Shown here: positions 3,880 to 63,936 of the stretch, piece after piece
How the letters are laid out: each line of letters starts with the position of its first letter
Position numbering within the stretch: the first letter of the stretch is position 1
Virus record (IMG/VR): IMGVR_UViG_3300029998_000014
Length of the DNA stretch: 64,000 nt
Reading direction: 5' to 3' (one strand)
Source of the DNA: a virus
Taxonomy: Duplodnaviria; Heunggongvirae; Uroviricota; Caudoviricetes
Notes under the pieces: generated by a model
Seen by the model: only the letters and a program-made list of their open reading frames with translations
Told to the model about the DNA's origin: nothing
Database searches by the model: none
Translations under genes and position numbers: made by a program

Positions 3880-3895
3880 AATTTTATTTATTTTG

Positions 3896-11175: not shown

Positions 11176-11303
11176 TGTTTAAATATGATCGTTAATGTTT
11201 TTAATGAATGTACCTAATACAATTATTACAACGATACAAATACCTGTAAAAATTATACCTTCTTGTAAATTCATTGTAGTAATTGCGTTAAAGTACGTTT
11301 CCA

Positions 11304-14393: not shown

Positions 14394-14408
14394 TTAATTT
14401 CAATTTAA

Positions 14409-14815
<407 letters not shown>

Positions 14816-22514: not shown

Positions 22515-22727
22515 TCAGTCACATGTAATATTTGATGGGGGCATAAACCACCCTTTATACCTAAATCCTCCGAAACGTATATCATACTCAATAGTATCAT
22601 CAATAAGTTGTCCTATTAATGGATTCATAAGTTTTCTAATGTTCCAGTGTAAGGGAGTTTCATATTCATAGTTCCATAAACAATCTCGTATGAATTCCTC
22701 TTTAGTTTTAATTCTTATTATACTCAT
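22515..22727 (-). CDS. Hypothetical protein
   Basis: 70-aa ORF. Confidence 0.35.
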   Translation of the reverse strand: MSIIRIKTKEEFIRDCLWNYEYETPLHWNIRKLMNPLIGQLIDDTIEYDIRFGGFRYKGWFMPPSNITCD

Positions 22728-28937: not shown

Positions 28938-29023
28938 TATGGATAAAAGGATTTGAACCTCCGACCTCCGGCTAATGTTTTTGTCTTGCTGCCGACGCTC
29001 TAACCAGGCTGAGCTATATCCAA
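28938..29023 (-). tRNA. tRNA-like gene with a normal D arm, T arm and acceptor but an 18-nt anticodon loop (decoding unresolved)
   Basis: Reverse complement TTGGATA TA GCTC AGCCTGGTTA GAGC G TCGGC [AGCAAGACAAAAACATTA] GCCGG AGGTC GGAGG TTCAAAT CCTTT TATCCAT A. Confidence 0.4.
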
Positions 29024-32159: not shown

Positions 32160-33266
32160 TTACTGAATGATATGAGGTACAAAATACGACATGTTGTCAG
32201 TAATTCTTGACGATGTTTCACGGATACCAAAACCACAAGACTCTCCACCAATAACCCACGATCCTAAGATCGGATACATTCCATCAAAAGACGGTATATC
32301 AACAAGTTCTTGGAAGATAAATCCTTCTTCTCCATATTCACCTTCAGTTTCTTCAAGAACTTCACCATTTTTTACAAGGGTTACGTTAGCACCTTCTCTT
32401 GAGAATATTGGTTTTTTACAATAGTTACCAGGAAGCGGTTGATCAGAAGCTTTTAATACGTATGGAGAATTAGGAAACAATTTGGCTACAATAGTAAGTA
32501 AATACTTGTTGCTCATAACGGCTTTCCAAAGAGGTTCGATGAATGTTGTTGCACATACAGGAATAGTTTTTCCAAACTCTTCGTTGAACATCCATTCATA
32601 TGGATACAATTTAAAAAGAACATCAAGGTTATTACCATCAGCGTCAGTAAACAATTCATCATTCGAATGAATTTCTTCAACATCCATCAACGTTACATTC
32701 AATCCAGCTTCAGCAGCAGTTGATAGTATGTATGCAGTGGTAGTATGATCTTCAAGATTTTCTTTACCACATGCAAAATAATACATATCCGATTGATATT
32801 GTGTATGAATGTCTTTCCAACTTTGAATAAGGGCTTCATGAATTGAATTGAACTGATCATTACCAGGATATACTTCTTCTTTCCACATCCATTGTACAAT
32901 GGCTGCTTCAAATAGAGATGTCGGGGTATCAGCATTAAATTCAAGACATTTTGGAACACCATTGATAAATGCAAAATCAAAGCGACCATACAGTGACAAT
33001 TCATCACTATTCCACGAGTCAACGATTACTGGAATCATTTCAGCGGGGATATGTAATTTGTCCCAAAGATTATTATCAATAACATGTTGTACGGCAGCAC
33101 AATACATTTGATAACATTCAACAGTTGCTTTTTCAATTTCTTCAATTTCTTTTGATGAAAAAGAATACACGGCATTTTCGAGCCAATAGTTTTCATTGAA
33201 TTCGAAACCTAAATCAGATAATTTTTGTTTATAATCTGATCTAGGATTTATTTTAAGTCTAATCAT
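32160..33266 (-). CDS. Glutathionylspermidine synthase-like (GspS family) ATP-grasp enzyme
   Basis: Motif RFDFAFINGVPKCLEFNADTPTSLFEA (GspS family hallmark E(Y/F)NADTPT). Confidence 0.6.
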   Translation of the reverse strand: MIRLKINPRSDYKQKLSDLGFEFNENYWLENAVYSFSSKEIEEIEKATVECYQMYCAAVQHVIDNNLWDKLHIPAEMIPVIVDSWNSDELSLYGRFDFAFINGVPKCLEFNADTPTSLFEAAIVQWMWKEEVYPGNDQFNSIHEALIQSWKDIHTQYQSDMYYFACGKENLEDHTTTAYILSTAAEAGLNVTLMDVEEIHSNDELFTDADGNNLDVLFKLYPYEWMFNEEFGKTIPVCATTFIEPLWKAVMSNKYLLTIVAKLFPNSPYVLKASDQPLPGNYCKKPIFSREGANVTLVKNGEVLEETEGEYGEEGFIFQELVDIPSFDGMYPILGSWVIGGESCGFGIRETSSRITDNMSYFVPHIIQ

Positions 33267-33342: not shown

Positions 33343-33753
33343 TCAACCACCGAAACCGTGACCACCACCGAAGCTATGACCTGATGATCCAAATCCACCT
33401 GAGCGAGATGATGAACCAGTACTATGTGAACCACTGAACATTGATGAACGAGTTGGTGCTGCAGTACGGAAAGCCGGTACAGATGACGGACGAGTAATTA
33501 CATGATTTGCAGAATTACGATAAGTTCCAGAAGAAGGATAATAATGGGTTACACCTGAAGGACGACCGTTCATAGATGAATAAATCATCCAATAACCAGC
33601 GCTATTCCATACAGAGCGATTACCACTTTCATCATAGTATTCTTGCCCCGCTGTTGGTGACATAGGATACCCTGAATTTCTTCTACAAGAAGTTGCGCTT
33701 CCTGCTACCGCTAAAGCTACTAAAGCGGCAAAAATTGCATGCGTTTTTTTCAT
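33343..33753 (-). CDS. Secreted Gly/Ser-rich protein
   Basis: Signal peptide MKKTHAIFAALVALAVAGSATSC; C-terminus GGFGSSGHSFGGGHGFGG. Confidence 0.5.
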   Translation of the reverse strand: MKKTHAIFAALVALAVAGSATSCRRNSGYPMSPTAGQEYYDESGNRSVWNSAGYWMIYSSMNGRPSGVTHYYPSSGTYRNSANHVITRPSSVPAFRTAAPTRSSMFSGSHSTGSSSRSGGFGSSGHSFGGGHGFGG

Positions 33754-43020: not shown

Positions 43021-43197
43021 TTACTTACAAGTTTTAGTACGATAAATTGCACATGTTTTACCTAACATATCAAAGTTTTCTTCGGATGTAGCAAGCTCTC
43101 TTCTTTGATAAGCTGCTTGTCTTGGAGTTAAACCTGATATTATTTCTACTTTTACATTGTTACCTGTTATGGCGATGATTGATTTAGTTTTTGACAT
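43021..43197 (-). CDS. Small hypothetical protein
   Basis: Start placed at MSKTKSIIAITG (ATG 43195-43197), immediately downstream of conserved element copy B. Confidence 0.4.
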   Translation of the reverse strand: MSKTKSIIAITGNNVKVEIISGLTPRQAAYQRRELATSEENFDMLGKTCAIYRTKTCK

Positions 43198-43280
43198 AAT
43201 CTTATTTGTTTTTGAGTTTGATATGTTTAAACATATTTCGTCCAGTCTCATCAGAAACTATTTTATACTCTACTGGTTGA
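43198..43280 (-). promoter_or_regulatory. Conserved upstream element, copy B
   Basis: GTTTTTGAGTTTG...TTTCGTCCAGTCTCATCAGAAACTATTTTATACTCT. Confidence 0.45.
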
Positions 43281-44738
43281 GTTAATAAAAAAGAGAGTAC
43301 ACACTATATGTCCAAATGCGACGATGTGTACTCCCTTAGTGTTTGTTATCAAAATTAATATGATAACCATTGTTTACTTCGCGGTACATCACCGATAAAA
43401 TCGGTGAATCTAACCGGGAAGCATTCTTTCGTAATAAAGAGCTTCACCCTTTTGCTCCCATAGCCAGTTTCAGGACGATATTACGTTGGCTTGTTTTTGA
43501 CACCAGCAATTAGCACGGCATCGGTTTTAGTATACCTATCTTTTATTAATTTGTCTTCAAGGATTGACAGAATGGATGCTATTTGTACATATAGCCGTTA
43601 TACCTTACACTCGGAAGTTCCACACTTTCATCGGAGGATTGCGCACAGGTTTTCATTATACTTATTTGCAGTTAGTATTATACTGTTTAAAGGCATCAAA
43701 CCACCATACTGAATCTCTTCTTGATTAGTTATTCAGATATGCTTCTTATATAAGAGATTATATTATTTATAACGTTATTATATAGAGAATATACATATCC
43801 AACCGTTTATCTGATGAAAGTTGCTTGATGCTAAGAGTTTAAAGTATATTTACAATAATTGCAGCTAATAAAAATCCAGCTGCGGCAGCATATAAATGCG
43901 ACATAATATGATTTTCTTTATCAAAACATATTAATCCCATAAATATATCAAATGCTAAACATAGACTGAGTATAATTACCATTAGCTTATGTATTTAAAC
44001 ATTAATATTCCACAATCAATAAGTAAAGAAAGCATTACATATCCCATTCGTGATTCTTCTTGCCATTTGATAATATTGAATTGTAGTCCAATAAATGAAC
44101 CTAACAAGTAAAAGATAATCCATGGTGCAATGTATAATAGAGTTTTTTCAGTTTTAGTCATGTTTTTTGATTTTACATTCTATTGATATAAACATTGCAC
44201 ACAATTCTACAAATAAATAGAAGATTAAGAACGGTGATAAACAAATTACTATTGCTTGAGTTTTAGTTAACATTATAGATCTTCATTTTTAAATTTGGTG
44301 ATGAAATTATCTAACCATTTAAATCGGATATTAAAGCGAACTCTTTTTATGAGTTTATCGCATAACATACAGATAAAAACAATTAATAATAATCCAATCA
44401 TAAATATCACTATTAATGTATTTATTCCAGGAATAAACCACATAAAATCACATTCAGCTTCATATTTACTAAATATATCTAAATACTTCGGAGATGCAAT
44501 TCTATATAAGACACTACACAGAACAATGGATAATAAATATCCAACAATTAATAAGAATAGTACCATGATTATTGTAATGGAATGTGAAACTTAATACACA
44601 ACATAAGTACAATCCCACACATTATAAATCCACACGCAAAACCTCCAAGTAATACACCTGTAAGATCTTTTTCAATATAATATTTTCTTGTTAGAAATAT
44701 ATCGAAACATAATAAAAGTAATAATAATATTATCATGA

Positions 44739-45011
44739 TTATTTGATTTTAAATTTATCAATTGGATACTCGTACGATGTTATATCATCATCATACACAT
44801 AAACCTTGATTTTATCCCGAGATTTAATGTGTGTGATGTAATATGTGTAAACCAATTTATGTTTTGGTTTAGTTATTGATTCAACTTGTGTAGCAATTGT
44901 GGGTTTTGTAGCTTGATGCATATGCCCACTTCTTGCTTCACAAGATGTTAATACTCGTAAAAGAATAATAACCAAAACTATTACAATAATATTAACAATA
45001 ATTTTAATCAT
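44739..45011 (-). CDS. Small membrane/lipoprotein-like protein
   Basis: 90 aa; N-terminal TM/signal ending in a Cys (LTSC). Confidence 0.4.
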   Translation of the reverse strand: MIKIIVNIIVIVLVIILLRVLTSCEARSGHMHQATKPTIATQVESITKPKHKLVYTYYITHIKSRDKIKVYVYDDDITSYEYPIDKFKIK

Positions 45012-45280
45012 TATTCTTTAGGTCTAATTGAGTTAACACTAATACTATCGAATCCAACAAACGTTTGTTCTTTAAGTATTTGTACAGCTTCAATTGGAGT
45101 ACGAGCACTAATGAATGTAGAACGTTTTAGAAACTTACCAGAAAGATATCCTTTGTAAGTTATTGTGTAAGTTTTTGATAATACTGGAGCATGTCTTCTT
45201 GATTGAGAATTACATGCAGTAAAAGAAACAATTAATACTATTGCTACAACAATATTAATAATAAAGATTTTTAATTTCAT
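45011..45280 (-). CDS. Small lipoprotein-like protein
   Basis: 89 aa; N-terminus MKLKIFIINIVVAIVLIVSFTAC. Confidence 0.4.
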   Translation of the reverse strand: MKLKIFIINIVVAIVLIVSFTACNSQSRRHAPVLSKTYTITYKGYLSGKFLKRSTFISARTPIEAVQILKEQTFVGFDSISVNSIRPKE

Positions 45281-45281
45281 T

Positions 45282-45503
45282 TTAAACTGATTTTTCTAAA
45301 TGAATAGCAATGTTAACAATTAATAATAGTATTATAATACCATATAATATACATATCTTTGGTAATTTAAAGTATGTAAATACATCAACTATAAGAGCTA
45401 CTAAAATTGCAACCATTACCACTATTAAAATGATAACGATTGTAATTAATATTATGTTTAGCATTTGATTAATTTTTATGAATATTAGATGCAATATGAT
45501 CAA
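45282..45503 (-). CDS. Small membrane protein
   Basis: 73 aa, two TM helices. Confidence 0.4.
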   Translation of the reverse strand: MIILHLIFIKINQMLNIILITIVIILIVVMVAILVALIVDVFTYFKLPKICILYGIIILLLIVNIAIHLEKSV

Positions 45504-45687
45504 ATAAAAATATTGCCATTATTATTAAACCTATTGGTCAAATTAATGATGTTGTAAAAATGCTCCGATATTTTGACCGTTATTTAAATACATACTACCA
45601 GGAAAATTATATTCTAATACAAGTAATAATATTGGACATAATATTAATCCAATAATATAAATAATGATTAATGTTATCATAATAAAT

Positions 45688-45780
45688 AAGTTTTTGAGTT
45701 TGACGGGAGTGATGAGCTCCCCGTTTCGTCCTAGTCTCTTCAGAAACTGATGTTATACTCTCCTAGGCTGAGTCATATTG
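45688..45780 (-). promoter_or_regulatory. Conserved upstream element, copy C
   Basis: TTTTTGAGTTTG...TTTCGTCCTAGTCTCTTCAGAAACTGATGTTATACTCTCC. Confidence 0.45.
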
Positions 45781-46047
45781 TTCTTACATCACTGTAATAC
45801 TAAATATAGTTGGGATAGAAATAATGATAATTAGAAAGAAATACAGACTGATGAGGAATGTATATTGTAAAAAAGACTCATGATAGGCTCCGGACTATTA
45901 TGCACCGTATGCAACACCGTCGGACGACGGTTAATCAAATCATAAGTCTTTTATGAAAGTAAACATAATTGAACCCGGGATATCTGTACCGTACTAAAAA
46001 CCATCAGATCTAATGATTTTTTCAATTATGTTTATGAGAGAGTATTG

Positions 46048-46275
46048 CTACTTTTTATGTTTATCTATAGTATTTATCATTTGATAAAACTTATAATAGA
46101 TTATACCTATTGATGCAACAAATAATACAAATGGCCAAAATAATGACATCATTCCATAACCCAATGCATAATCAGCAGGATCATCACATTCTAAAACATT
46201 TGGAAAGAACTTTGTGAAAAGCATAATAATGAATGGGAATAACGGAATTCCAATGAGATAAATTGTTATTATCAT
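46048..46275 (-). CDS. Small membrane protein
   Basis: 75 aa, two TM helices. Confidence 0.4.
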   Translation of the reverse strand: MIITIYLIGIPLFPFIIMLFTKFFPNVLECDDPADYALGYGMMSLFWPFVLFVASIGIIYYKFYQMINTIDKHKK

Positions 46276-46339
46276 AATTTAATAAGTTTAATAAATCTCC
46301 TAATCACCTTACGGCTTTCGGAGACTCAAAAGTGTGTGA

Positions 46340-46669
46340 TTAAATACCTAATTCTTTTAGTTTACGATAAACTGTTCGTTCACTTAATCCAAGTTTTTCA
46401 GCAATTACTTTATTTGTATAATAACCTAGACTCTTAAGAATTATAATATTCTCAGATTCAGTTCTAACACCTGTAATTTCAAGCTTATTTATTGAACTAA
46501 TTATTGTAAAACTTGAAAGATCAACAGCATTTGTAATAGCTAATAACTCTTTTACAGTTATATTAGATATAATCTCTAAAGTTTGTGATTTGAAATCAAC
46601 CTTAATTTTTTCCATTATTACCTGGTTTATAAGATTTATAAACTTTGTGTAATGTGTGACGTGCATCAC
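46340..46669 (-). CDS. HTH DNA-binding protein
   Basis: C-terminus KVIAEKLGLSERTVYRKLKELGI (helix-turn-helix). Confidence 0.5.
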   Translation of the reverse strand: MMHVTHYTKFINLINQVIMEKIKVDFKSQTLEIISNITVKELLAITNAVDLSSFTIISSINKLEITGVRTESENIIILKSLGYYTNKVIAEKLGLSERTVYRKLKELGI

Positions 46670-46689
46670 TAGATGATGCTAAATATACA

Positions 46690-46800
46690 GTTTTATTCAT
46701 TGTGATATGTGTTTTGAGTTTTACGAGAGTTTTAGAGTTTCCTCTTATTCTCTCGTTTCGTCTAGATCTCATCGGAAACCAATGTTATACTCTCTCTAGC
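46690..46800 (-). promoter_or_regulatory. Conserved upstream element, copy D
   Basis: GTTTTGAGTTTT...TTTCGTCTAGATCTCATCGGAAACCAATGTTATACTCTCTC. Confidence 0.45.
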
Positions 46801-46874
46801 TGAGTTGTATGTTATCATTTTACAATGACTAATACCAACGTTCAAAATTACTTAAATGAATAATATATATTGTT

Positions 46875-47168
46875 TTATTTTTTAGAATTATGATTATAAA
46901 CTTGTTGCATTTTCATAGCTTTATCAAGTTCTTTTTGAATAATTCCATAATATATTGGTTGAGTTGTAGTAAATATATATTTACCTCGTGATATATTTGT
47001 GATTAATTCACAAGATTTGAGAAGATTAAATATACTTGACGAATAAGGACATTTAGTTTCTTTTAAAATTTTTGTTAATTCAATTTTACTAAAAGAATCA
47101 ATTTCTTTTGATATGATATTATTAACACATGATATAACTAATTTAGCATTTTCTTCAGATGTTTTCAT
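46875..47168 (-). CDS. Hypothetical protein
   Basis: Start placed at MKTSEEN (ATG 47166-47168), directly 3' of conserved element copy E (partial, 47169-47230). Confidence 0.4.
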   Translation of the reverse strand: MKTSEENAKLVISCVNNIISKEIDSFSKIELTKILKETKCPYSSSIFNLLKSCELITNISRGKYIFTTTQPIYYGIIQKELDKAMKMQQVYNHNSKK

Positions 47169-47728
47169 TATGATGTTTTTGAGTTTGAGCATCGCGTAGG
47201 ACCTAAACTTATACCAATTGTATAAATCTATTGTAACTGAATTGTTACAATATGCACTCTGTTAATAATATTACATAATCAATCCAAATATGTTTTGTCA
47301 TATGTAGGGTTTTCAATGTAAAATTTGGTTGGAATGATTATTGGGATTATTTTTGGAGTGGTTGAGAGTCGTTGTCAGTGCTCGTTTACTCTCAATCAAC
47401 CCAAATATTTTTTTAAATAATCATCTCTATCTTAATACCACATTAGTTATGATATCATTTCGTGTTTGGATATAGCATTCTATGGGGAAAAATGGCTCAT
47501 ATTCTTCTAATCTCATCTTGTATGGATATACTTTATGTTCATGTCCAAAGACATCTTCGAACTTATTGCATGATATCCAAGTGCCTTTCATACATTTCCA
47601 TGTGCTCACAATTATACTCAATATTTGGTAATACATAATTATACTAAGTTGAATACTATAATATATAATTACGTAGTAAAAAAAAGAGAAGTACAAAAAT
47701 GTACTTCTCTTATAACATTGTTAAAATG

Positions 47729-48226
47729 TTATTTCTTTTTGGCTGGTTTAGCCGTATCAACTGTAACATCCTCAGTATCAACTGATTCGTTAACAAGTTC
47801 AAAGATAGGCATATTTTTTGCAACCTCTTTGATTTCTTTACCCTCGGCGATTTCGTCAGCAGTACGGAAAGCATTAACAGTTACAGTTTCGTGGTCTACA
47901 ACTTTGATAGTTTTACCTAACAAGTCCTTAACACTCAAATTTAAACCGTTGTCAATCACGGCACGTTTTGATTGTTCGCCACTTGTGAAATAAATTCCCA
48001 TTAACGTATTAGCACCAACCACGGCAACTGAACCGTTAACAAGTGCAGAGATACCGAGCCACGGTTTTCCACCCTGTGAAATAGCTTCCATTTCAACAAC
48101 GGCGTCCAATTCAATTACAGTATCTTTCGCATAAGTATCGCCACCAATTGAGGCAAAACGAGCAGGAATTTCTGAGGTTGTTAAAATACGTTTACAACCT
48201 GGAATTTGTCTTTTTTCAATATTCAT
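47729..48226 (-). CDS. Hypothetical protein; first gene of the minus-strand block next to the divergent region
   Basis: 165-aa ORF with Lys-rich C-terminus. Confidence 0.5.
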   Translation of the reverse strand: MNIEKRQIPGCKRILTTSEIPARFASIGGDTYAKDTVIELDAVVEMEAISQGGKPWLGISALVNGSVAVVGANTLMGIYFTSGEQSKRAVIDNGLNLSVKDLLGKTIKVVDHETVTVNAFRTADEIAEGKEIKEVAKNMPIFELVNESVDTEDVTVDTAKPAKKK

Positions 48227-48299
48227 AATGATAGAGTTTTGTTTGTTAGTAGTTTACTTTCCATTCAAGACCTGCTGGGGGTAGAAGAGATGACTGTCC

Positions 48300-48766
48300 A
48301 CCCACTCGATTCATAAAAATAAAAAAATTTTTTCAAAAAAAATTATTCAGAACTTCCTAAAAATTATTTTCAATACTTTTTATATCTTCTACCTTTTAAT
48401 AAAATTAATTTTACTACGCGCGCGTTCGTATATATAGTAAACTTTTGCGTTTGATACAACAAATTTTGCGTATCAATATGTAAAGTTTTACGGACAGCCA
48501 CATTAAGTATAGAATTATTAAGTATATATTAAGTATATGGAAACCTTGTAATTCACTGTGTCACAATAACTTAACCGTTTTCATACAAACTCGAGCGTAT
48601 CATTTGAAAATTCCGACGTATCATTTGAGATTTTTTGCGTATCATTTGGAGTTATCTTATTGACTATTAACCGATTACAAATGATATGCTCGAAGTAATT
48701 GTATATCAGTGACTTAACATTTTTTAACTATGTGTATAGTATTTTTGTCACACAAATTTCTTATCT
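48300..48766. promoter_or_regulatory. Divergent intergenic region with A/T tracts and iteron-like repeats (candidate origin / early promoters)
   Basis: ATTAAGTATA x3 (48502-48540). GCGTATCATTTG x3 direct (48595-48648), one inverted copy (48678-48689), and further GTATCA/TGATAC copies at 48450-48475. A8/T8 tracts at 48310-48345. Confidence 0.45.
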
Positions 48767-48787
48767 TTGTGTATCAAATTTAATACG

Positions 48788-49561
48788 ATGAGTGAAGAAA
48801 AAGAAAAGAAAACAAATAGACACGTCCAAGTGCCAAACTCTGTCGCTAACAATGTAGACAGTGATAAGAAATCTAAATACAAAAAGCACTATACTGATGT
48901 CTTAGTTTATGGTTTTCTTCGAAAAAATATGGACGGAAAAACAATGGTGGCATTTATATCCTTAAAAATTATAGCAGACTCGATTGACATGTCGGTCGGT
49001 GGTGTATCAGCTGCAATTAAAAGATTAGAAGAAGCAGGAGATGTAACAAAAATTAAAATGGAAGGTGGACGAAATCAAAATGGATATAAATTTAATCCAC
49101 ATTCCGACAAGTTTGAAATGTATGATTTAAGTTTCCTCGAAAATAAAGAACTTAATAGTTTACAGAAATCATATTATATGATTATGCAACCTTATTTATA
49201 TATTGATAAAGAAACTGGAATAGGTAAAACTACTTATAGTGATATTGAAATTTCAGAAATAACAGGTATATCTAAAACAGTAGCACAAGAACGTAGACGA
49301 GAATTAGAATCACTTGGTTTTATAAACAGAAGAACAACTACAGATATGGAAGGTAACTCTTGTGAAGCACTTGAATTTAATCTTCCTAAGTTTGGACAAT
49401 TTGTTATGTGTAAAATTAAAGAACACGATGTTGCAATAACTGATTTAAATATAAAAGTAAATCAATTAGAACAAGAACTAAATCATCTAAGAAAACAAAT
49501 GAAACTTAAAGGAGAATATACTCCTTACGAAGAAAACACTAATAACGAAATAACATTATAA
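48788..49561 (+). CDS. DNA-binding protein with two winged-helix-like domains (candidate replication initiator or early regulator)
   Basis: First gene right of the iteron region; ISLKIIADSIDMSVGGVSAAIKRLEEAGDV and SDIEISEITGISKTVAQERRRELESLGFI resemble wHTH recognition helices. Start at MSEEKEK. Confidence 0.5.
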   Translation: MSEEKEKKTNRHVQVPNSVANNVDSDKKSKYKKHYTDVLVYGFLRKNMDGKTMVAFISLKIIADSIDMSVGGVSAAIKRLEEAGDVTKIKMEGGRNQNGYKFNPHSDKFEMYDLSFLENKELNSLQKSYYMIMQPYLYIDKETGIGKTTYSDIEISEITGISKTVAQERRRELESLGFINRRTTTDMEGNSCEALEFNLPKFGQFVMCKIKEHDVAITDLNIKVNQLEQELNHLRKQMKLKGEYTPYEENTNNEITL

Positions 49562-49872
49562 TGTCTGGAAAAGAATTAACAATAGAAATAATAAATAAAT
49601 TAAATAATATTCAAACTAAATATAATCCAACTAATTATAAATTTGAATTGAAAGAATATAATGATACAGATAAAAAGCAAATATATGCAAAAATAGTTCA
49701 TTATAATCACGATGAAGAAATCATTGTTGTAAATGCATTAATATATTATAAAGAGTATGATGATACTGTACATAAACTTTTATATGAGGAATTAAATTCA
49801 AGTTTATTTAATAAATTATTATTTACAAATATATTTAAAAATACTATAGCAACTATAGATTTATTAAAATAA
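49561..49872 (+). CDS. Hypothetical protein
   Basis: 103-aa ORF. Confidence 0.45.
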   Translation: MSGKELTIEIINKLNNIQTKYNPTNYKFELKEYNDTDKKQIYAKIVHYNHDEEIIVVNALIYYKEYDDTVHKLLYEELNSSLFNKLLFTNIFKNTIATIDLLK

Positions 49873-50244
49873 ATGGAAGTAATACAACACTTCGTTCGTA
49901 ATGACGACCATGATGAATTATACATTATGGAAATTGAAGGGAAAGCTTATGCTAGGATGTATTGATTCCATGATGATCCAAAATCAGTTTACTTAAACTC
50001 TTTAAGTGTTGAGAATAACGAAAGAGAACAAGGACTTGGAACTAAAATGCAGGAACTAAGAGAGAAAATAGGAATAGAACTCGGAGCTACACAATCCTTT
50101 TTATGAGTTAAACGGGATAGTTGAATGTATGAATGATATACCCGAAGAGGTTATAACGATTTCTCAGATTACACAGATGATGATAGTATGATATGAATGA
50201 TTAAAATGTTAAATGATAACAATACTAAATACAAAGAAGACTAA
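49873..50244 (+). CDS. GNAT-family N-acetyltransferase containing 5 in-frame TGA codons (read as Trp) and no TGG
   Basis: ATG 49873, TAA 50242. The translation with TGA=W reads MEVIQHF...YIMEIEGKAYARMYWFHDDPKSVYLNSLSVENNEREQGLGTKMQELREKIGIELGATQSFLWVKRDSWMYEWYTRRGY...SMIWMIKML. The Q/RxxGxG/A GNAT motif (QGLGTKM) is present. This gene is absent from the standard-code ORF track. Confidence 0.7.
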
Positions 50245-50499
50245 ATCTACAATAACATTATTTCTATCTAATTATCAAGAAATAATAATTACAAGATCAA
50301 CTCCAGAGAATGATGAATATTATATAAATAAATGGACTAATTTTTACAAAGAATATGGACAAACAATTAAAGAGAACTCTCAAGAAGCTTAACAATTATA
50401 AGATTAGATTACTTATCGAATTAGAATGTGATCCAGATCTTAATGTTAACGATGCATTACGTAAACTAAATAAAGTAGACAAACTAATAAATAAATTAA

Positions 50500-50721
50500 A
50501 TGGAGAATAACTTAGACAAAGCAACAGTACAACACTATAATAAACTAACAGTAGAAGATGTAGAAAAAGTTCTAGCTTCTATGCCAGATAATCCATTCGA
50601 CTATCCTAAGTATTTGGGAGAAGGAATCTATGAAATATCCAAAGGATGTTTCACAGGACAAAGAGGAATGGAAGAATTTAATAAATCACTAACAGACCAC
50701 ATAAAACAATGGCACTTATAA
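50500..50721 (+). CDS. Hypothetical protein
   Basis: 73-aa ORF. Confidence 0.4.
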   Translation: MENNLDKATVQHYNKLTVEDVEKVLASMPDNPFDYPKYLGEGIYEISKGCFTGQRGMEEFNKSLTDHIKQWHL

Positions 50722-50972
50722 AAGAAGATCTAACAGCAGAGGTTAGACTATATGAACTAACAGATGATATACTAGATAAAATATATAATATTGATTGTAT
50801 ACTTTCTAAAGTTAGATCAGAAATGACAAGACTATCAGAAGCAAGTCTTATTGATTTAGACTTATCTACAAAAGATGTAAACAAACTATATAAATTTAAA
50901 CAAGTAACAGATAGTTTATATGCAGCACTCCAAGAACTTCGAGGAGAAATAGAAGAATTTAATAATGAATAA
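50709..50972 (+). CDS. Hypothetical protein
   Basis: 87-aa ORF. Confidence 0.4.
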   Translation: MALIKEDLTAEVRLYELTDDILDKIYNIDCILSKVRSEMTRLSEASLIDLDLSTKDVNKLYKFKQVTDSLYAALQELRGEIEEFNNE

Positions 50973-51402
50973 TAAATATTATACACCAAAAGTAGAAGAA
51001 TTTCATGTAGGATTTGAATACGAAGAATTTATAAATTTTGATATGTTACTTATTAGATCAATAGATCATGAAGATGATATTATATGGATTAAAACACATC
51101 TTGATGTAAATATGACTTTTGAATTTATGGAGATTCCATTTAAAATAATGAGAGATTGTATAAGAGTTAAATACTTAGATAAAGAAGATATAGAAGATTT
51201 AGGGTTTAAATTTCATGAACATTTATACGGAGCATCTCAATATTTTTATAAAGATATAAAATTACATGATAGAGGATTTGGATTAAGTATATATTCATCT
51301 AAACATATAATAGATGCATCACAAGATGAATGTTTATTTAATGGACTAATTAAAAATAAATCGGAACTAAAAGTATTACTTAAACAATTAAATATTTCTT
51401 AA
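50965..51402 (+). CDS. Hypothetical protein
   Basis: 145-aa ORF. Confidence 0.45.
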   Translation: MNNKYYTPKVEEFHVGFEYEEFINFDMLLIRSIDHEDDIIWIKTHLDVNMTFEFMEIPFKIMRDCIRVKYLDKEDIEDLGFKFHEHLYGASQYFYKDIKLHDRGFGLSIYSSKHIIDASQDECLFNGLIKNKSELKVLLKQLNIS

Positions 51403-51507
51403 ATGCAAAACGATCTTAAAAACTTTTACGACAACTGGTACTTCTACCAAGAATATAAAGATAAACCGCACTACCCTGGTGCACACACAATTATATATAA
51501 ATAAACT

Positions 51508-51873
51508 ATGGAAATAATTTCTTATCAAAACTACACAACAGTTGCACGATTAAATTCGATACTAAAAGAAGTTGGTATTAATGATAGATTCTTACTAGAA
51601 CCTATTGAAACACTAAACGAACTTGGTGTAAAAATTACAATCCCATCATTAATCACAAACAAAGCTCCTTATTCTATTGAGATTAAGTTAGATTATAAAC
51701 AAAATAGTTTAACCGTTTCACAAATAATAGGGTCTATAAACAAAGATTTATCCGACTTACTTAGATCTATTAAACCATCACTTACTAGTTTACTAACTCT
51801 ACAAAAAGCAATAAATGGTATAGTAACTATAACAGACATTAACATTACAAACGAAAACTTTAATGCAAACTAA
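51508..51873 (+). CDS. Hypothetical protein
   Basis: 121-aa ORF. Confidence 0.45.
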   Translation: MEIISYQNYTTVARLNSILKEVGINDRFLLEPIETLNELGVKITIPSLITNKAPYSIEIKLDYKQNSLTVSQIIGSINKDLSDLLRSIKPSLTSLLTLQKAINGIVTITDINITNENFNAN

Positions 51874-52324
51874 ACTTAAACTAATTACATTATACGCAGT
51901 ACTTAAAGAAGCTTCTAAAATTGGAGGAGCAAAATTCAGATATGCAGTTCTTAAGAATTTAAAAAGTATTGATAGTGAAATCGAATCACTTAAAACAATT
52001 GAGAAAGATATTGAAGAAATTATTAAAGATTTCAATGAAGCTAAAAATATTATCATTATGGAACACGGAACTCCAGATGAAAAAGGTATACACGTAGTTA
52101 AACCAGGTGACGAGAACTTTGAACTAGTTAATAAGAAAATTAAAGATCTAGTTAAAACTCATGAAACTTCTCTAGATCTTTATAGACTTAAACGAGAAGA
52201 GTATGAAAAACTTTTAAAAGAAGATGCTGAATTTGATTTTAATTTATTTGAAATCAATATTGATAATATTCCAGATGAGTTAAAAGATCTAGAAATCTTA
52301 ATGGACTTCGAGATAGTAAAATAA
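51863..52324 (+). CDS. Hypothetical protein
   Basis: 153-aa ORF. Confidence 0.45.
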   Translation: MQTKLKLITLYAVLKEASKIGGAKFRYAVLKNLKSIDSEIESLKTIEKDIEEIIKDFNEAKNIIIMEHGTPDEKGIHVVKPGDENFELVNKKIKDLVKTHETSLDLYRLKREEYEKLLKEDAEFDFNLFEINIDNIPDELKDLEILMDFEIVK

Positions 52325-52429: not shown

Positions 52430-52858
52430 ATGGAAGAAATACTAAAGAAATTTAATTACAAACCCACAGAAGAAAATACTTGGGTTAAAGGTGAATGGAC
52501 TGTTAGATTTGATGATGAACTCGTCGAAGTTTTTAACGATCCTAATAAAAGTGCAGGCGAATATTATAGTTCACCAATTGCAACAGTAGATTTAGAATTA
52601 ATATTAATGGAAGTTGATAGGAAAAATCGCTGACCAATCGTTACTATGGTTACTGATATGATTACCGATGTAAATGCAGAATCAGAAAATGCAACTGGAA
52701 ATACTTATATAATGTTTACTCCTCATAGAGTATGGTTAAAAGATTGGTTAAGGTTATGGGGTCAAGAAGAAAATGGAAGTTATTCTATTACAGGTAACAA
52801 TATCTTTGTTGTTGATTCAACACTAAGTAAAGTAATAGATATTACAAAACTAATATAA
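52430..52858 (+). CDS. Hypothetical protein, continuous through TGA at 52631-52633
   Basis: Track ORFs 52430..52633 and 52646..52858 are in the same frame, separated by TGA plus 4 sense codons (...EVDRKNR-W-PIVTMVTDMI...). Confidence 0.45.
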
Positions 52859-52887
52859 AAGTTAGAGGTTCTTTAAAACCTCATCAT

Positions 52888-52960
52888 ACCTTTGTAGTGT
52901 AATGGTTAGCACACAAATCTTCAAAATTTGTAAGTGTGAGTTCGAGTCTTACCAAGGGTG
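52888..52960 (+). tRNA. Opal-suppressor tRNA, anticodon UCA, tRNA-Trp-derived (tRNA-Trp(UCA))
   Basis: ACCTTTG TA GTGT AATGGTTA GCAC A CAAAT CTTCAAA ATTTG TAAGT GTGAG TTCGAGT CTTAC CAAGGGT G. The anticodon loop is C-U-UCA-A-A. A1-U72, G73, the D loop and the T loop UUCGAGU match the E. coli tRNA-Trp architecture. Confidence 0.9.
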
Positions 52961-52978
52961 CAAAATGATAGAATAAAT

Positions 52979-53545
52979 ATGAATAGAACAAGTAAAGAAG
53001 AATTAGAAAAACTAATATTAATAGATAAGTTATCATATGCTGAAATAGCAAGAACATTTGGTGTATCTGATGTTACTATTAGAACCTGGGCAATTAAACT
53101 AGGGATAAATATTCCTAGCCGAAAAAAAATATTGGAAAATAAGATATGTTTAAATTGTAATAATGAATTTAAACCATCTGGAACTACAAATAAATATTGT
53201 AGTCAACAATGTTCAAATGAACATAAAATAATTTTAAATTATGAAAAATATAAATTAGATAATTCCATACTTTATGGACAATCTAATATGTCAAATTATA
53301 AAAAACATTTTTTAAAAGAACAAGATTATAAATGTACAATTTGTGGAAATCCGAATACTTGGAATGATAAAGAATTGGTATTTGTTTTAGATCACATTGA
53401 TGGTAATGCTGATAATAATGAACGTAGCAATTTAAGGTGTATATGTCCTAATTGCGATAGTCAACTTGATACATTTAAATCTAAAAATAAAAATAGTGCT
53501 AGAGCAAAATACAGACAAACTTTAAAGGTGGAGGAATGTGTATAA
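52979..53545 (+). CDS. HNH homing endonuclease with N-terminal HTH
   Basis: LDHIDGNADNNERSNLRCICPNCDSQ (HNH) and LSYAEIARTFGVSDVTIRTWAIKLGI (HTH). The track ORF starts at GTG 52958 inside the tRNA; the ATG at 52979 is preferred. Confidence 0.75.
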   Translation: MNRTSKEELEKLILIDKLSYAEIARTFGVSDVTIRTWAIKLGINIPSRKKILENKICLNCNNEFKPSGTTNKYCSQQCSNEHKIILNYEKYKLDNSILYGQSNMSNYKKHFLKEQDYKCTICGNPNTWNDKELVFVLDHIDGNADNNERSNLRCICPNCDSQLDTFKSKNKNSARAKYRQTLKVEECV

Positions 53546-56173: not shown

Positions 56174-56884
56174 ATGGGAAAAGGCACACGAGAAAAGCGT
56201 ACTGAGAAACGCGAGAAAAACAGATTACCCGAAAAACAATCTAACTTAGTAAATGATTTCAAACCAAAGAATGAGAAACAACAAGAGTTTATTAACCTTA
56301 TAAATGATAGAGAGATTATCATTGCTACAGGTCCTGCTGGAACAGGTAAGACATATGTAACATTAGCAACAGCTTTATCATTATTAGGTTCAATCTATAA
56401 AAAGGTTATTCTTGTAAAGTCAGTAACTACTATTCCCGGAGAAGAAATAGGATTCCTTAAAGGTGGAATGGAACAGAAAATGGAACCATTTATAATGTCT
56501 TATATGTGAAATATTGATAAGATCTGCGGAGATAAATCTGCACAGAACTTACTTGATAAAAAAATAATTGAAGTATTACCACTAGCTTTTATTAGAGGTT
56601 TATCAATTGATAATGCTATTGTAATAATCGATGAAGCACAAAACATAGATAATCATACTTTTAAAACAATGATGACTAGAATTGGAGAAAACTCAAAATA
56701 CATTCTTCTTGGAGATAGTGAACAAATAGATAGACGTAAGAAAAGCGAATCGTGTTTAGCGAAAGTTATTGAGATATTTACTGATTCAGATATTATTGGA
56801 TCAATAGAATTTAAAGATGAGGATTGTGTGAGAAATCCAATCATTCCTATAATTTTATCTAAACTAAGAGAGAACGGAATCTAA
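56174..56884 (+). CDS. phoH: PhoH-like ATPase with one in-frame TGA (56507-56509)
   Basis: ATGPAGTGKTYVTLATA (Walker A) ... LAFIRGLSIDNAIVIIDEAQN (PhoH signature). The frame is continuous only if TGA is sense (...FIMSYM-W-NIDKICGDKS...). Start at MGKGTREKR. Confidence 0.85.
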
Positions 56885-57102: not shown

Positions 57103-57561
57103 ATGACAGAATTACTAGTAGGCGGTGCAGTAACAATTGCAGTATCAGCATTTACTTTCCTTTTAGGAAAGGGTAAAAATCAAGCTGAAACAGAAAAGCT
57201 TGAAAAAGAAACAGAGAAAATAGAAATCGAGACTAAGTTCGATGAGGTTAAATTACTTAAAGAAATTAATCAAAACTTATCAGATCAATACGAAAAAAAT
57301 GATAAGAGATGGACTGAACGTTACGCCGAAATGGAAAAAAAGTGAATGACTATTGTAAGCCAATATGAAGTTTATAAAACTCAAACTGAAAAACGTATTT
57401 GTGAACTTGAAGAAATTGTAAAGAATCAAGATAGAGATAAATGTTTAGGTGATTTATGTCCTACTAAAATAGAATATAATAAGATCCTAGCAAAAAGATT
57501 AGAGAGAAAAAGAAACTCCGCTATGAAAAAATTTAATCAAAGCGGTACAAAACAGGAATAA
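57103..57561 (+). CDS. N-terminal TM + coiled-coil protein, continuous through TGA at 57343-57345
   Basis: Track ORFs 57103..57345 and 57346..57561 are in the same frame (...EMEKK-W-MTIVSQYEV...). TM helix LLVGGAVTIAVSAFTFLLG. Confidence 0.45.
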
Positions 57562-58492: not shown

Positions 58493-58823
58493 AATAGCCG
58501 TCGGAATTTTTGTATTCCTATTGGTGTGTATAGCATTCTCAATACAGAACGACAAATACAAAGTCTTAGATAATAATTATAAGATTGAACAATTAAAGGT
58601 TGACAGTTGTAATAAGAAAATAAAAGCATATGAATTATTGAACAGAAAAGCAGATAGCACTATATGAGTACTAGAGAAAAAGAATGATTCTCTTGGAGAT
58701 ATAAAACCAATAATATTAATGTACTATGATAAGAAAATTAAAAGTATTAACAGTGCTTCTGCTTATGAGCACGCTCGTTGGATGGACTCAATCGTCACCA
58801 AAGTGAACAGTATGAAAAAGTAA
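58410..58823 (+). CDS. Small TM protein, continuous through TGA at 58665-58667
   Basis: ...KADSTI-W-VLEKKNDSLGDIKPIILMYYDKK...ARWMDSIVTKVNSMKK, then TAA. TM helix FKIAVGIFVFLLVCIAF. Uses both TGG and TGA. Confidence 0.4.
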
Positions 58824-58863
58824 TCCTGATACTATTATTACTTACAATTACACAAAAACTGAT

Positions 58864-59178
58864 TTGACTAACGTTAGATTATATGTTACTGGATTGGAAG
58901 AAACTCGAGAGTTATATAACATCGAAATACAACAATCTAAAATAAAGGATTCTATAATTATTGAAAAAAATAAAAAATTAGATAACTTTAAAAATATAGT
59001 AATAGAAAAAGATTCTATTATAGGTTATACTGTTACAGAGTTTAATAAAGCAGACAAATGGGGAAAATCTCAAGAAGTCTTAAAAACTAAATATAAAAAA
59101 CAAGCTGCAAGAACTCCATTATTTATGGGTATTAGTAGTGCAATAGGATTTATATTATGTCTATTATCAATAAAGTAG
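58864..59178 (+). CDS. Hypothetical protein with C-terminal TM anchor
   Basis: 104 aa; C-terminus TPLFMGISSAIGFILCLLSIK. Confidence 0.45.
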   Translation: MTNVRLYVTGLEETRELYNIEIQQSKIKDSIIIEKNKKLDNFKNIVIEKDSIIGYTVTEFNKADKWGKSQEVLKTKYKKQAARTPLFMGISSAIGFILCLLSIK

Positions 59179-59429
59179 CACAAGGGTTCTTCAATGAACT
59201 AATGAATAAAGAAGCAGAAACACACACCAAACGAATGATTCATTGTAAACAATGTAAATTGTTATATAATGATAGTTTGTTTGGAGAAACATGTAATTCT
59301 GAATTATATGTAAATCCGGAAACAAATGAAGTTTCTACAACAGATAAACCAGGATTTAAGAATGGATGCGGATGTATCCTTAGATCCAAGACACGAGTAC
59401 CAGATGCACACTGCCCTTTAGGCAAATGA
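59157..59429 (+). CDS. Cys-rich zinc-finger-like small protein
   Basis: CKQCK ... CNSE ... CGC ... HCP. Confidence 0.4.
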   Translation: MSIINKVAQGFFNELMNKEAETHTKRMIHCKQCKLLYNDSLFGETCNSELYVNPETNEVSTTDKPGFKNGCGCILRSKTRVPDAHCPLGK

Positions 59430-59445
59430 TAACAATGAAAATGTA

Positions 59446-60894
59446 ATGATAATGAAAAATGTTTTATTTAATGGAGATGCAAAAGACATCTTAATTGAAG
59501 GAGTGAATTTAATAGGCGATGCTGTGTCAACAACATTCGGACCTAATGGAAAAAATGTTATAATCAAAGGACTCTCAGGAGTGTATATAACAAAGGATGG
59601 AGCAACCGTTGCAAAATATGTAAACGATGATGATCCATTTATTAGTACAGGTATTGAACTTATAAAAGGTATTGCAACTAAAACAGCAACTGATGTTGGA
59701 GATGGTACAACCACTGCAACTATTCTTGCTCAAACTTTAGTTAATACTTTAAAAGATAAGACTGAAAATCCAATTGCTATAAGTAGAGAGTTAGATAAAG
59801 AACTCAAACAAGTTATAGAATATTTGGAAAAGAATAAAAGAACAATCACAAGTGTAGAAGACTTAATTAAAGTTGCCACAGTATCTACAAATAATGATAT
59901 TGAACTTGGTAAACTTGTAGCTGAAACTTATTTTAAAGTTACAAAAGATGGAGTAGTAACTATAGAAGATTCACAAGATACACATAATTCAGTTGTGTTT
60001 TCACAAGGAGTTAAAATTGAATCAGGATATAACTCACCATACTTTGTTAATACAACTAAGAGTACATGTGAACTAGAAAATGTATTAATTGCAGTTTTTA
60101 GAATACCTTTAACTGAGATTAAAGATATTGACGAAGTATGTAGTAGAGCTATGAGAGAAAAGAAAGCACTTCTTATTATTGCTCCAAAAATGGAATCCAC
60201 AATACTAAGAACTCTAGTACATAATAATAATACAGGAAATCTAAAGTCTTGTTTTATTAGTTCACCCGGACATGGTATCTATAGAGAAACTTTACTTGAT
60301 GATATCGAATGTATTGCTTCTACTTCAGTTTGTGAAAAAATTATAGTATCAAAAGATACTACATATCTAATAGGATGTGAATCTAACCAATCGGTTATTG
60401 ATGCTAAAATATTAGAAGTAAAAAATACACTTAGTTGTAGTACAACTGAGTTTGAAATGACGTTTCAAAGAAAGAGATTAGCTAATTATATTGGTGGTAT
60501 AGCTACTATATTTGTTGGTGGATATTCTCAAGTTGAAATACAAGAAAAGAAAGATAGATTAGAAGATGCTATTTGTGCGGTTAGAGCTGCTATGACAGAT
60601 GGTATATTACCTGGTGGAGGTTTCTCATTACTTAGAGCTGCTAAACTTTTAGACTTAAAATATTTAAGTAAAGTATTGGTAATGCCTAATTTAATACTAT
60701 CTGAGAATAAAGCAGATGGTATAGATATTTTCAATTTCTGGGAAGGTAAAGACTATAAGACTAGACAAATTGGAGACATGTATGAAATGGGAATCGTAGA
60801 TCCTTTCCTAGTAACAAAGATAGCTTTAGAAAATGCAGTATCAGTAGCATCACTGATCTTAACTAATGGATGCACAATATTAAATATAAATTAA
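59446..60894 (+). CDS. groL: GroEL-like chaperonin (Cpn60)
   Basis: TTFGPNGKNVIIKG...ITKDGATVAK...ATKTATDVGDGTTTATILAQTL matches the GroEL equatorial ATP-binding motifs; 482 aa. Confidence 0.85.
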   Translation: MIMKNVLFNGDAKDILIEGVNLIGDAVSTTFGPNGKNVIIKGLSGVYITKDGATVAKYVNDDDPFISTGIELIKGIATKTATDVGDGTTTATILAQTLVNTLKDKTENPIAISRELDKELKQVIEYLEKNKRTITSVEDLIKVATVSTNNDIELGKLVAETYFKVTKDGVVTIEDSQDTHNSVVFSQGVKIESGYNSPYFVNTTKSTCELENVLIAVFRIPLTEIKDIDEVCSRAMREKKALLIIAPKMESTILRTLVHNNNTGNLKSCFISSPGHGIYRETLLDDIECIASTSVCEKIIVSKDTTYLIGCESNQSVIDAKILEVKNTLSCSTTEFEMTFQRKRLANYIGGIATIFVGGYSQVEIQEKKDRLEDAICAVRAAMTDGILPGGGFSLLRAAKLLDLKYLSKVLVMPNLILSENKADGIDIFNFWEGKDYKTRQIGDMYEMGIVDPFLVTKIALENAVSVASLILTNGCTILNIN

Positions 60895-60897
60895 AAA

Positions 60898-61254
60898 ATG
60901 ACAATGATTATGGAAAAAGAAATTATGCCCCTTGGATTAAATATATTTGTACAGCCTTATGCTGTTAATCCTTATTTGCAAGTAGTATCTGCTGGTGGAC
61001 TACAATTAACTAATGGAGAGTTTCAAAATCCTGATAGTGGAGAAGTTGAACAACTAACATCACATATTAAATGTGGAATAGTTTTAGAAGTTGGAAAAGA
61101 TTGTAAACAAGTAAAAGTTGGAGATGATGTATTTTATAATGCGCATACAACTACACCAATTCCTTTTATGGGAAGGGGTTTTATACTAACACACGAACCT
61201 GGTGTTATGTGTATTATAAATGAAGGGTTAAAAGAAAGATTTAAAAACAATTAA
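60898..61254 (+). CDS. groS: GroES-like co-chaperonin (Cpn10/gp31-like)
   Basis: VVSAGGLQLT...GIVLEVGKD...VKVGDDVFYN parallels GroES SAGGIVLT...GEVLAVG...VKVGDIVIFN. Sits immediately after groL. Confidence 0.55.
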   Translation: MTMIMEKEIMPLGLNIFVQPYAVNPYLQVVSAGGLQLTNGEFQNPDSGEVEQLTSHIKCGIVLEVGKDCKQVKVGDDVFYNAHTTTPIPFMGRGFILTHEPGVMCIINEGLKERFKNN

Positions 61255-63360: not shown

Positions 63361-63936
63361 ATGAAATTTTTTGTATATGATAATGTAAATGGAAATGTAT
63401 CTCTCGAAGACACAAGTATACTTTTAATAAAGGAATTTGAAGCTTTGTTAGAAGATAATAGAAATAAAAGTAGTGCCGACAAAACGGGTAAAAAACGGTT
63501 GAGAGCATTTAAAGAATTTAAATTTATATATCTGTTCTTTGATTGAGAAAGTCCTTATTTTCAATATACAGAACAAGATAAACATGCAGAGGCTATGAAA
63601 GATTCAGGATTGTCAGACGAAGAGTTTGACGATCCTAAATTTAGAATGGCGTGTCAAAAATATGATGAAATCCAAAATTCATCATTAGACATAAAATTAT
63701 TAAAGGCGGCAATGAATGCTGTTGATAATCAAATATTTTATTTAAGTAATGTAGATTTACAAGAAAGAGATCCTATTACGGGAAAACCAATCTTTAAAAG
63801 TAAAGACTTAATTGCTGAGATTAAAGGCTGTAAAGATTTAATATCTACTTTACGTGAATTACAAGTTCAAGTTAAGAAAGGATTAGAAATTGAAAGTAAC
63901 GTAAGAGGTAATACTGAAATTGGATTATTCGATTAA
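63361..63936 (+). CDS. Hypothetical protein, continuous through TGA at 63544-63546
   Basis: Track ORFs 63361..63546 and 63595..63936 share a frame (...FIYLFFD-W-ESPYFQYTEQDKHAEAMKDSGL...). Confidence 0.45.

Follow-up and report, generated by a model that had tools for sequence, protein, structure and literature searches.

The DNA analysed here, referred to as the window, is a 64,000-nt stretch of the virus record IMGVR_UViG_3300029998_000014 (Caudoviricetes) in IMG/VR. The gene under study lies on its plus strand and encodes a putative acetyltransferase of the GNAT fold. Its reading frame starts with the ATG at 49873 and stops with the TAA at 50242-50244. Five in-frame TGA are located at codons 31, 78, 84, 88 and 108 (first bases 49963, 50104, 50122, 50134 and 50194), and TAG, internal TAA and TGG are all absent. 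Two cistrons precede the gene in a tight unit; they overlap each other by TAATG at 49559-49563, and the TAA of the second abuts the GNAT ATG at 49870-49875. The features of the locus are as follows.

48788-49561, plus strand: helix-turn-helix (HTH; HTH_24/HTH_36) protein of 257 aa, opening the plus block and free of Trp codons
49561-49872, plus strand: gene of 103 aa, no Trp codon, TAA abutting the GNAT start
49873-50244, plus strand: GNAT-fold gene, 123 sense codons and TAA, five TGA (Trp), no TGG
50214-50354, plus strand: segment specific to the window (about 141 bp), missing from the related contigs L001, L003 and L004 and holding the present GNAT stop
52888-52960, plus strand: tRNA with anticodon UCA (opal suppressor type), a 73-nt type I cloverleaf with an Rfam tRNA score of 62.9 bits

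With TGA read as Trp (genetic code 4), the translation contains QGLGTKM at residues 53-59. The first-pass annotation of this locus had described an ATG-to-TAA frame of 123 codons with five TGA, no TGG and this motif, and all of it was exact on recount. It had also held that the gene cannot be seen with the standard code, which is correct because translation table 11 gives only a 30-aa stub from 49873 and the interval is without any open reading frame (ORF) of at least 60 aa. Frames of at least 70 codons that contain TGA and are free of TAA and TAG number well over 100 in the window, mostly antisense shadows with negative coding scores, and frame length alone in DNA of 30% GC is not significant evidence of a gene. 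The case for the GNAT gene must therefore rest on other evidence. The codon-usage score was positive in all six segments delimited by the TGAs, and the GC content of 0.32 is within the range of the neighbouring genes. Beyond the codon scores and a Pfam match, it is above all the comparative evidence that raises the frame above chance.

A search with the code-4 translation retrieved four full-length proteins with 89, 82, 74 and 60% identity. They are encoded on short, AT-rich metagenomic contigs which are syntenic with the window at 48.5-52.9 kb. The reading frame is kept in all four, and TGA is found at positions 78, 84, 88 and 108 in every one of them. Position 31 is TGG in L002, the most distant relative, whose GNAT gene contains six TGA and three TGG in total. 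Conservation of TGA in relatives had been proposed as a check on the gene, and the codons proved to be kept in frame with no frameshifts. Synonymous changes are abundant among the relatives (compared with L001, for example, 16 codons differ synonymously and 15 non-synonymously), and the recoded GNAT clade contains 26 TGA and three TGG, that is 90% TGA. In the window, the 141-bp segment has replaced the C-terminal tail of the protein; codons for the ancestral tail GQTIKENSQEA survive at 50360-50392 in another frame. The segment is not repeated in the rest of the window.

A profile search of 1.8 billion representatives returned 364 family members at E≤1e-10, from which 55 distant homologs with 30-53% identity were drawn. 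Trp occupies columns 31, 78, 84, 88 and 108 in 27, 34, 52, 54 and 51 of these 55 proteins, respectively. Gly was present at position 31 in at most two of them and at 84, 88 and 108 in none. Because some of the 55 could themselves be code-4 calls, the DNA of homologs was inspected where obtainable. In standard-code homologs the aligned Trp sites were TGG, at all five positions in L008, L015 and L017, at four of five in ORF-154 of Tenacibaculum phage PTm1 and at three of five in L005. The contigs carrying standard-code homologs are phage-like, one with ThyX, primase and prohead protease, another with arrays of small genes, RNase H, ClpP and a helicase. Scanning metagenomes with a TGR-degenerate pattern yielded L008 as the one true homolog beside four chance matches, and no GNAT relative was found in IMG/VR by protein patterns, by the tRNA sequence or by the neighbouring HTH protein. 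At the level of sequence comparison, these results establish that the GNAT frame is an intact, selected gene in which TGA corresponds to Trp, accompanied by a suppressor-type tRNA and by recoding that is specific to one block of the window.

The product is predicted to be a minimal GNAT-fold acetyltransferase of a family widespread in phages. The first-pass annotation had called the translation GNAT-like and suggested a search under code 4. The window protein matched Pfam Acetyltransf_1 (PF00583, clan CL0257) with 22.3 bits, marginally above the gathering cutoff of 20.7, and the match began at profile position 30. The suggested search thus gave a protein-family match under code 4. The homologs P0041 and P0011 match PF00583 too (matches unmarked), and the family profile detected GNAT proteins in the PDB with E 5.8e-10. 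In GNAT proteins the acetyl-CoA pyrophosphate-binding loop, known as motif A, has the form Q/R-x-x-G-x-G/A and lies between beta4 and alpha3. The corresponding residues here are R51-E-Q-G54-L-G56, of which R, G and G are kept in 53, 51 and 51 of the 55 distant homologs. The structure was modelled with AlphaFold2 on P0001, which is 89% identical and served as a proxy for the window protein. The model (pLDDT 92.9) opens with four strands, followed by a helix, a strand, a second helix and two final strands. Foldseek gave 353 matches of this model in the PDB at E≤1e-3, and all of the 50 matches listed are GNAT acetyltransferases with query-normalised TM-scores of about 0.6-0.69; no specific GNAT subfamily stands out among them. 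The N-terminal arm of GNAT proteins (alpha1-alpha2 after beta1) usually shapes the acceptor site, and it is variable and not strictly defining. No helix was found before residue 55 in the P0001 model. Given the arm missing from the model and a Pfam match that leaves out the first 29 profile positions, we describe the protein as a minimal GNAT of about 115-125 aa.

The tRNA(UCA) gene is located 2.6 kb downstream of the GNAT gene on the same strand. ARAGORN called it at 52888-52961 and labelled it 'SeC', which is due to the anticodon alone. In its fold the acceptor stem has 7 bp, the variable loop is short and the anticodon loop reads CUUCAAA. A1-U72, G73 and U20 are as in tRNA-Trp, the D-arm is common with a phage tRNA-Trp, and A20, which is present in both aligned tRNA-Arg sequences, is absent. 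By the rules of tRNA identity, A1-U72, G73 and U20 fit recognition by tryptophanyl-tRNA synthetase (TrpRS), so the tRNA would be compatible with charging by this enzyme. The contigs L018 and L019, which carry the closest relatives of the window's ribonucleotide reductase (RNR), have a tRNA(UCA) gene in the equivalent slot directly upstream of RNR (L018:3564-3655 and L019:8540-8633). These two tRNAs are of type II, 92-94 nt in length with a long variable arm, in contrast to the 73-nt type I tRNA of the window, and A1-U72 and G73 are common to all three. Despite the type II tRNA(UCA), TGA in L018 mostly aligns with Trp. L004, a Logan contig from SRR19631087, aligns to the window only as far as position 52887, one base short of the tRNA(UCA) gene; a variable locus may have broken the assembly there.

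Gene orientation and GC skew both switch at about 48.3 kb and divide the window into two blocks. In the plus block (48.8-64 kb) there are 14 sense TGA and 31 TGG, 14 of these TGG being located in RNR. In the minus block (1-48.2 kb) there are no in-frame TGA and 180 TGG in 61 genes, with a single exception in an HNH endonuclease gene at 357-1136. The contrast in TGA and TGG between the blocks is significant (Fisher p ~3e-10). Coverage of the plus block by long ORFs was 75% under code 11, 92% under code 4 and 81% under code 15, and no code-4-specific gain in coverage was found in the minus block. TGA serves as the stop codon of six minus-block genes, in which the next TAA or TAG follows after only 0-11 non-coding codons and two of which have ATGA stop/start overlaps.

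11639-12538, minus strand: NMNAT/NUDIX-like gene (cytidylyltransferase/NUDIX fusion) ending in TGA, with an ATGA overlap with the next gene
12903-13274, 13637-14098, 19584-19931, 22515-22727 and 33343-33753, minus strand: other minus-block genes ending in TGA

Tandem TGA-TAA ends were found at 12903-13274 (minus strand) and at 59157-59429 (plus strand), where suppression would add one Trp only. At the remaining minus-block TGA stops the distance to TAA or TAG is 2-11 codons, so that read-through tails would be short. The genome thus uses TGA in two ways according to block, as a stop and as a Trp codon. Trp codons are scarce on both sides of the divergent intergenic region. In the genes of 43021-52324 on both strands, GNAT excluded, they make up 6 of 1822 codons (0.33%), and the blocks overall have 1.0-1.6% (Poisson P ~1e-6 at a rate of 1.5%). 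Several of these genes have none, and Trp-free genes flanking the divergent region are readable under either code.

Further genes of the window contain sense TGA.

52430-52858, plus strand: 142-aa gene, TGA at codon 68, five TGG
56174-56884, plus strand: PhoH gene, TGA at codon 112 between Walker A and Walker B, no TGG
57103-57561, plus strand: 152-aa gene, one TGA at codon 81; the basis is coding potential on both sides only
58726-59178, plus strand: 150-aa signal-peptide protein (p150), TGA at codons 27 and 30, two TGG; codon 27 is TGA in L018
61280-61555, plus strand: 91-aa gene (p91), TGA at codon 70; TGG in L019 and L084, TGA in L018
62168-63355, plus strand: 395-aa Lys-rich low-complexity protein (p395), TGA at codons 34 and 60, no TGG
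63361-63936, plus strand: 191-aa gene (p191), TGA at codon 62, no TGG; TGG in L018, L019 and L084
357-1136, minus strand: HNH endonuclease, the only minus-block gene with a sense TGA, which aligns to a TGG Trp of its paralog at 52979-53545

The first-pass annotation regarded the GNAT gene as the strongest single evidence for recoding. The gene is strong and the most striking evidence. It is not the sole evidence, since PhoH, the 142-aa gene, the HNH gene and five further plus-block genes are equally direct. In PhoH, the TGA lies inside one continuous Pfam PhoH match (E 2.4e-57), and the site is TGG in L019 and L084 and TGA in L018. In L004, the 142-aa gene keeps TGA68 and has TGA for W102 and W110, that is two TGG/TGA interchanges relative to the window. 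By codon usage, the p395 gene scores highest in the window (0.62 bits per codon); its two TGA sites are TGG in L019, TGA in L084, and one TGG and one TGA in L018. When the window TGAs of PhoH, p91, p395, p191 and p150 were compared with L018, L019 and L084, TGG or TGA was found in 16 of 17 comparisons. At three RNR positions that are TGG in the window, L018 has TGA. L019 (IMGVR_UViG_3300021166_000109) carries a tRNA(UCA) gene and has TGG at all five of the window-TGA sites in PhoH, p91, p395 (two sites) and p191, so it looks like the stage of 'suppressor first, recoding later' of Borges et al. (10.1101/2021.08.26.457843). L018 is more recoded than L019, and L018 and L084, with their mixed TGG and TGA, also represent intermediate stages.

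The two HNH paralogs, at 357-1136 (minus strand) and 52979-53545 (plus strand), each adjoin tRNA genes. The latter lies between tRNA(UCA) and RNR, is missing in L018, and has 77% DNA identity to the HNH gene of the crAss-like phages cr53_1 and cr116_1. A mobile tRNA(UCA)-HNH cassette common with crAss-like phages was considered and rejected, as cr53_1 has no suppressor tRNA beside its HNH gene.

As a working model, the UGAs of the GNAT mRNA would be decoded as Trp by the phage tRNA(UCA), presumably charged by the host TrpRS, and full-length GNAT would be made only after this tRNA accumulates. Competition with release factor 2 (RF2) at five UGAs would make the yield scale approximately as f^5, where f is the per-codon suppression efficiency. 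The first-pass annotation reasoned that the protein cannot be made before the suppressor tRNA is available and called this a translational timing switch. The dependency stands as a matter of logic, because five UGA codons are otherwise impassable and block the full-length product. The switch as an adaptation is not required, since neutral A-bias predicts TGA. The A-ending share of the Lys, Glu, Gln, Leu and Arg purine codon pairs is 84-95% in both blocks. AT bias alone thus predicts about 85-95% TGA once TGA is readable, and five TGA of five is the neutral expectation. With codon pairs at this level and a clade at 90% TGA, the all-TGA state needs no selection. Its simplest origin would be AT-biased drift from TGG to TGA where TGA costs nothing, and the delay in GNAT would be a consequence of this drift and not necessarily a selected switch. 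What calls for explanation may rather be the TGG kept elsewhere, which might reflect constraint on genes read before or without suppression. The timing proposal is plausible on these data without being required by them, and it corresponds to the model of Borges et al., in which the standard code serves early and the alternative code late translation.

A selected translational gate, as in the first-pass annotation and in that model, would mean that TGA alone is kept so that the co-transcribed GNAT waits for a threshold of suppressor. We regard this as possible and give it the smaller part of our confidence. GNAT, with five TGA and no TGG, is more recoded than the rest of the plus block with nine TGA and 31 TGG (Fisher p=0.0016), which could reflect either lower constraint or selection. 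Its TGAs persist down to 60% amino-acid identity, and gene families that prefer TGA, including a homing endonuclease, have been reported in recoded phages by Borges et al. The arrangement also suits a gate: in its tight operon GNAT is preceded by two conserved genes free of Trp codons (L002 has HTH, small gene and GNAT in this order as well, and its HTH and 103-aa genes have no Trp codon either), and tRNA(UCA) follows downstream on the same strand. However, the TGA share of the clade, 26 of 29, equals the neutral A-ending share with no excess. Moreover, L002 has either retained TGG or reverted to it at one of the five sites and has three TGG overall, and the family works with TGG in standard-code phages. 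Sequences resembling promoters gave no further guide, as neither a scan for the sigma-70 consensus nor one for TTTG...TAnnTTTG, the promoter type of Bacteroidota, rose above the count in shuffled sequence. A wider proposal is that codon choice makes an intra-operon delay or threshold, with two Trp-free genes followed by a third needing five suppressions, and that the suppressor has been repeatedly exchanged at a fixed slot upstream of RNR (type I here, type II in L018 and L019). This combination we consider improbable. If it were true, recoding in the jumbo-phage clade would have proceeded stepwise, with non-structural genes first.

The other explanations concern the gene or the code itself. 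If the whole phage and its host used genetic code 4 in the manner of Mycoplasma, GNAT would be an ordinary gene and no code switch would exist. The good support for TGA as Trp in many plus-block genes and the AT-rich genome, like that of code-4 organisms, fit this idea, but the minus block has no TGA against 180 TGG despite its A-ending usage of 84-95%, six of its genes stop at TGA with two ATGA overlaps, and RNR keeps 14 TGG. As the nearest cultured relatives also infect standard-code Bacteroidota, we judge it highly unlikely. We place in the same low range a recent horizontal transfer of GNAT from a fully code-4 donor, which would explain its 100% TGA. GNAT is more recoded than its neighbours, and the region is mosaic, with the window-specific 3' insert and homing endonucleases nearby; against a transfer, the synteny of HTH, 103-aa gene and GNAT conserved to 60% identity implies long residence, the GC of 0.32 fits the neighbours, and the closest standard-code homologs are phage-borne too. 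That the frame is a decaying pseudogene, a former GNAT with five nonsense mutations, is scarcely credible. The standard code does break it into pieces of no more than 46 codons, yet the nonsense codons are all TGA and all at Trp columns, with no TAA or TAG, and relatives down to 60% identity keep TGA sites, frame and motifs with changes rich in synonymous ones. Equally negligible in our estimate is a reading of TGA as glycine (code 25) or selenocysteine, for which the 'SeC' label of ARAGORN and the existence of code-25 phages (Borges et al.) might be cited. The aligned residues of standard-code homologs are Trp encoded by TGG and not Gly or Cys, a 73-nt type I tRNA with a short variable loop is not like a selenocysteine tRNA, and five selenocysteines at Trp positions of the hydrophobic core are implausible. 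Pseudogene, glycine and selenocysteine are thus excluded, since relatives keep the frame and the TGAs and standard-code homologs have TGG.

Our preferred reading, of which we are highly confident, is that of a real and selected GNAT gene, in which UGA is read as Trp via the phage tRNA(UCA), in an AT-rich phage that is coded block by block and is related to the jumbo phages of Bacteroidota. Several observations weigh against parts of it. The Pfam match of the window protein itself is marginal. The ancestry of tRNA(UCA) is ambiguous between Arg and Trp as judged from alignment: it has the same anticodon stem as a Vibrio phage tRNA-Arg(UCU), and BLAST gave weak matches with tRNA-Arg and tRNA-Trp mixed. 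No gene for release factor 1 (RF1) or TrpRS that might shift the balance against RF2 was seen among the larger ORFs of the window, small ORFs not all having been scanned, so that efficient read-through at all five UGAs is hard to account for. The recoded block has RNR, PhoH, GroEL/ES, nucleases and GNAT, and neither block of the window contained a recognisable gene for structure or lysis. The content of the recoded block thus appears non-structural, in contrast to published cases, where recoding typically affects structural and lysis genes, and the annotated functions mark neither block as early or late. For the excess of recoding in GNAT within its block, pure drift must invoke lower constraint. 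The insertion of Trp and its timing are what we infer from these sequences.

The 718-aa protein of the window and its RNR are closest to those of an uncultured 462-kb phage, of Cellulophaga phages phi17:2 and phi4:1, and of many IMG/VR contigs of up to 334 kb, which suggests a lineage related to the jumbo or huge phages of Bacteroidota. The first DNA matches had pointed to a crAss-like origin. This was ruled out, as the protein relatives are jumbo or huge Bacteroidota phages and the sole crAss similarity is one HNH gene. Among cultured phages, the jumbo phage PTm1 encodes a similar protein, ORF-154 (BBI90546.1), which has 39% identity over its full length of about 115 aa, R-x-x-G-x-G and the conserved Trp. 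Unlike the window gene, it belongs to a genome annotated in the standard code, its Trp codons are TGG, and it is without function annotation.

In Mycoplasma and Spiroplasma, code 4 is genome-wide: UGA is read as Trp by tRNA-Trp(UCA), and RF2 is absent. The window phage resembles them in UGA read as Trp via the anticodon UCA and in its AT-rich genome. It differs from them in that only part of the phage genome shows the reassignment, with TGA remaining a stop in the other part.

Gut phages of the Jade and Agate clades have been described by Borges et al. as recoded from TGA stop to Trp and carrying suppressor tRNAs. Recoding there is partial (26-71% of genes), very close relatives differ in code, the suppressor was acquired before recoding, and TGA stops are depleted in AT-rich relatives. 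The window phage is like these phages in being AT-rich, in its TGA at Trp positions, phage tRNA(UCA), partial recoding and rarity of TGA as stop; in close relatives with TGG/TGA interchange, among them L019 with the suppressor and TGG at five of five sites; and in some families that prefer TGA. It is unlike them in its Bacteroidota jumbo-related lineage, in a recoded block without recognisable structural or lysis genes, and in the lack of an RF1 or TrpRS gene among the ORFs scanned in the window. Yutin et al. (2021, PMC7886860) describe block-wise dual coding in crAss-like phages, with contiguous blocks of which one is standard and the other has opal (or amber) reassigned. The arrangement found here is alike, in a phage that is not crAss-like and shares only the one HNH gene of 77% nucleotide identity. 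A gene caller for dual coding is presented in the Mgcod preprint (10.1101/2022.06.29.495998), and a jumbo-phage survey reported stop-codon recoding with suppressor tRNAs in a small percentage of genomes. The present case is a clean further example of described phage stop-codon recoding and reveals no new mechanism. Specific to it are the Bacteroidota-type jumbo lineage, the non-structural nature of the recoded genes, and the pair of L019, with tRNA(UCA) and TGG at five of five sites, and the more recoded L018.

Calling genes under the standard code hides real phage genes here, since GNAT, PhoH and at least six others are fragmented or missed. The window is also a further, well-controlled instance of TGA-to-Trp recoding by blocks, in a Bacteroidota jumbo-related lineage whose relatives capture intermediate stages. 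With TGA as stop in the minus block and as Trp in the plus block of one genome, it offers a good system for testing the proposed code switch during infection.

Some other elements of the window deserve mention. A phage-encoded tmRNA at 14407-14815 on the minus strand (Rfam 107 bits; tag peptide GNKTISFARTAFMAAA by ARAGORN) is of note, given that stop-codon read-through is part of this genome's coding. A tRNA of 86 nt at 28938-29023 (minus strand) was found by Rfam (47.5 bits) and not called by ARAGORN; its anticodon loop region of 18 nt possibly contains a small intron or insertion. Three tRNAs were called by ARAGORN only, outside the Rfam gathering list: 24-113 ('Tyr', ATA, 90 nt), 3895-3968 (Cys) and 6319-6391 (Glu). 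Rfam also placed three ribozymes in intergenic regions of the minus block.

43215-43283, minus strand: RAGATH-1 hammerhead ribozyme, gathering-level match, 67.6 bits
45697-45774, minus strand: RAGATH-1 hammerhead ribozyme, gathering-level match, 59.4 bits
24005-24066, minus strand: Pistol ribozyme, gathering-level match, 41.6 bits

An NAD-related cluster on the minus strand (9298-12538) comprises a nicotinamide phosphoribosyltransferase (9301-10728), a nucleoside 2-deoxyribosyltransferase-like gene (10732-11175) and the cytidylyltransferase/NUDIX fusion (11639-12538), and may be a module for NAD+ salvage or counter-defence. The phage also encodes GroEL and GroES at 59446-61254 (plus strand) and a glutathionylspermidine synthase at 32163-33266 (minus strand).

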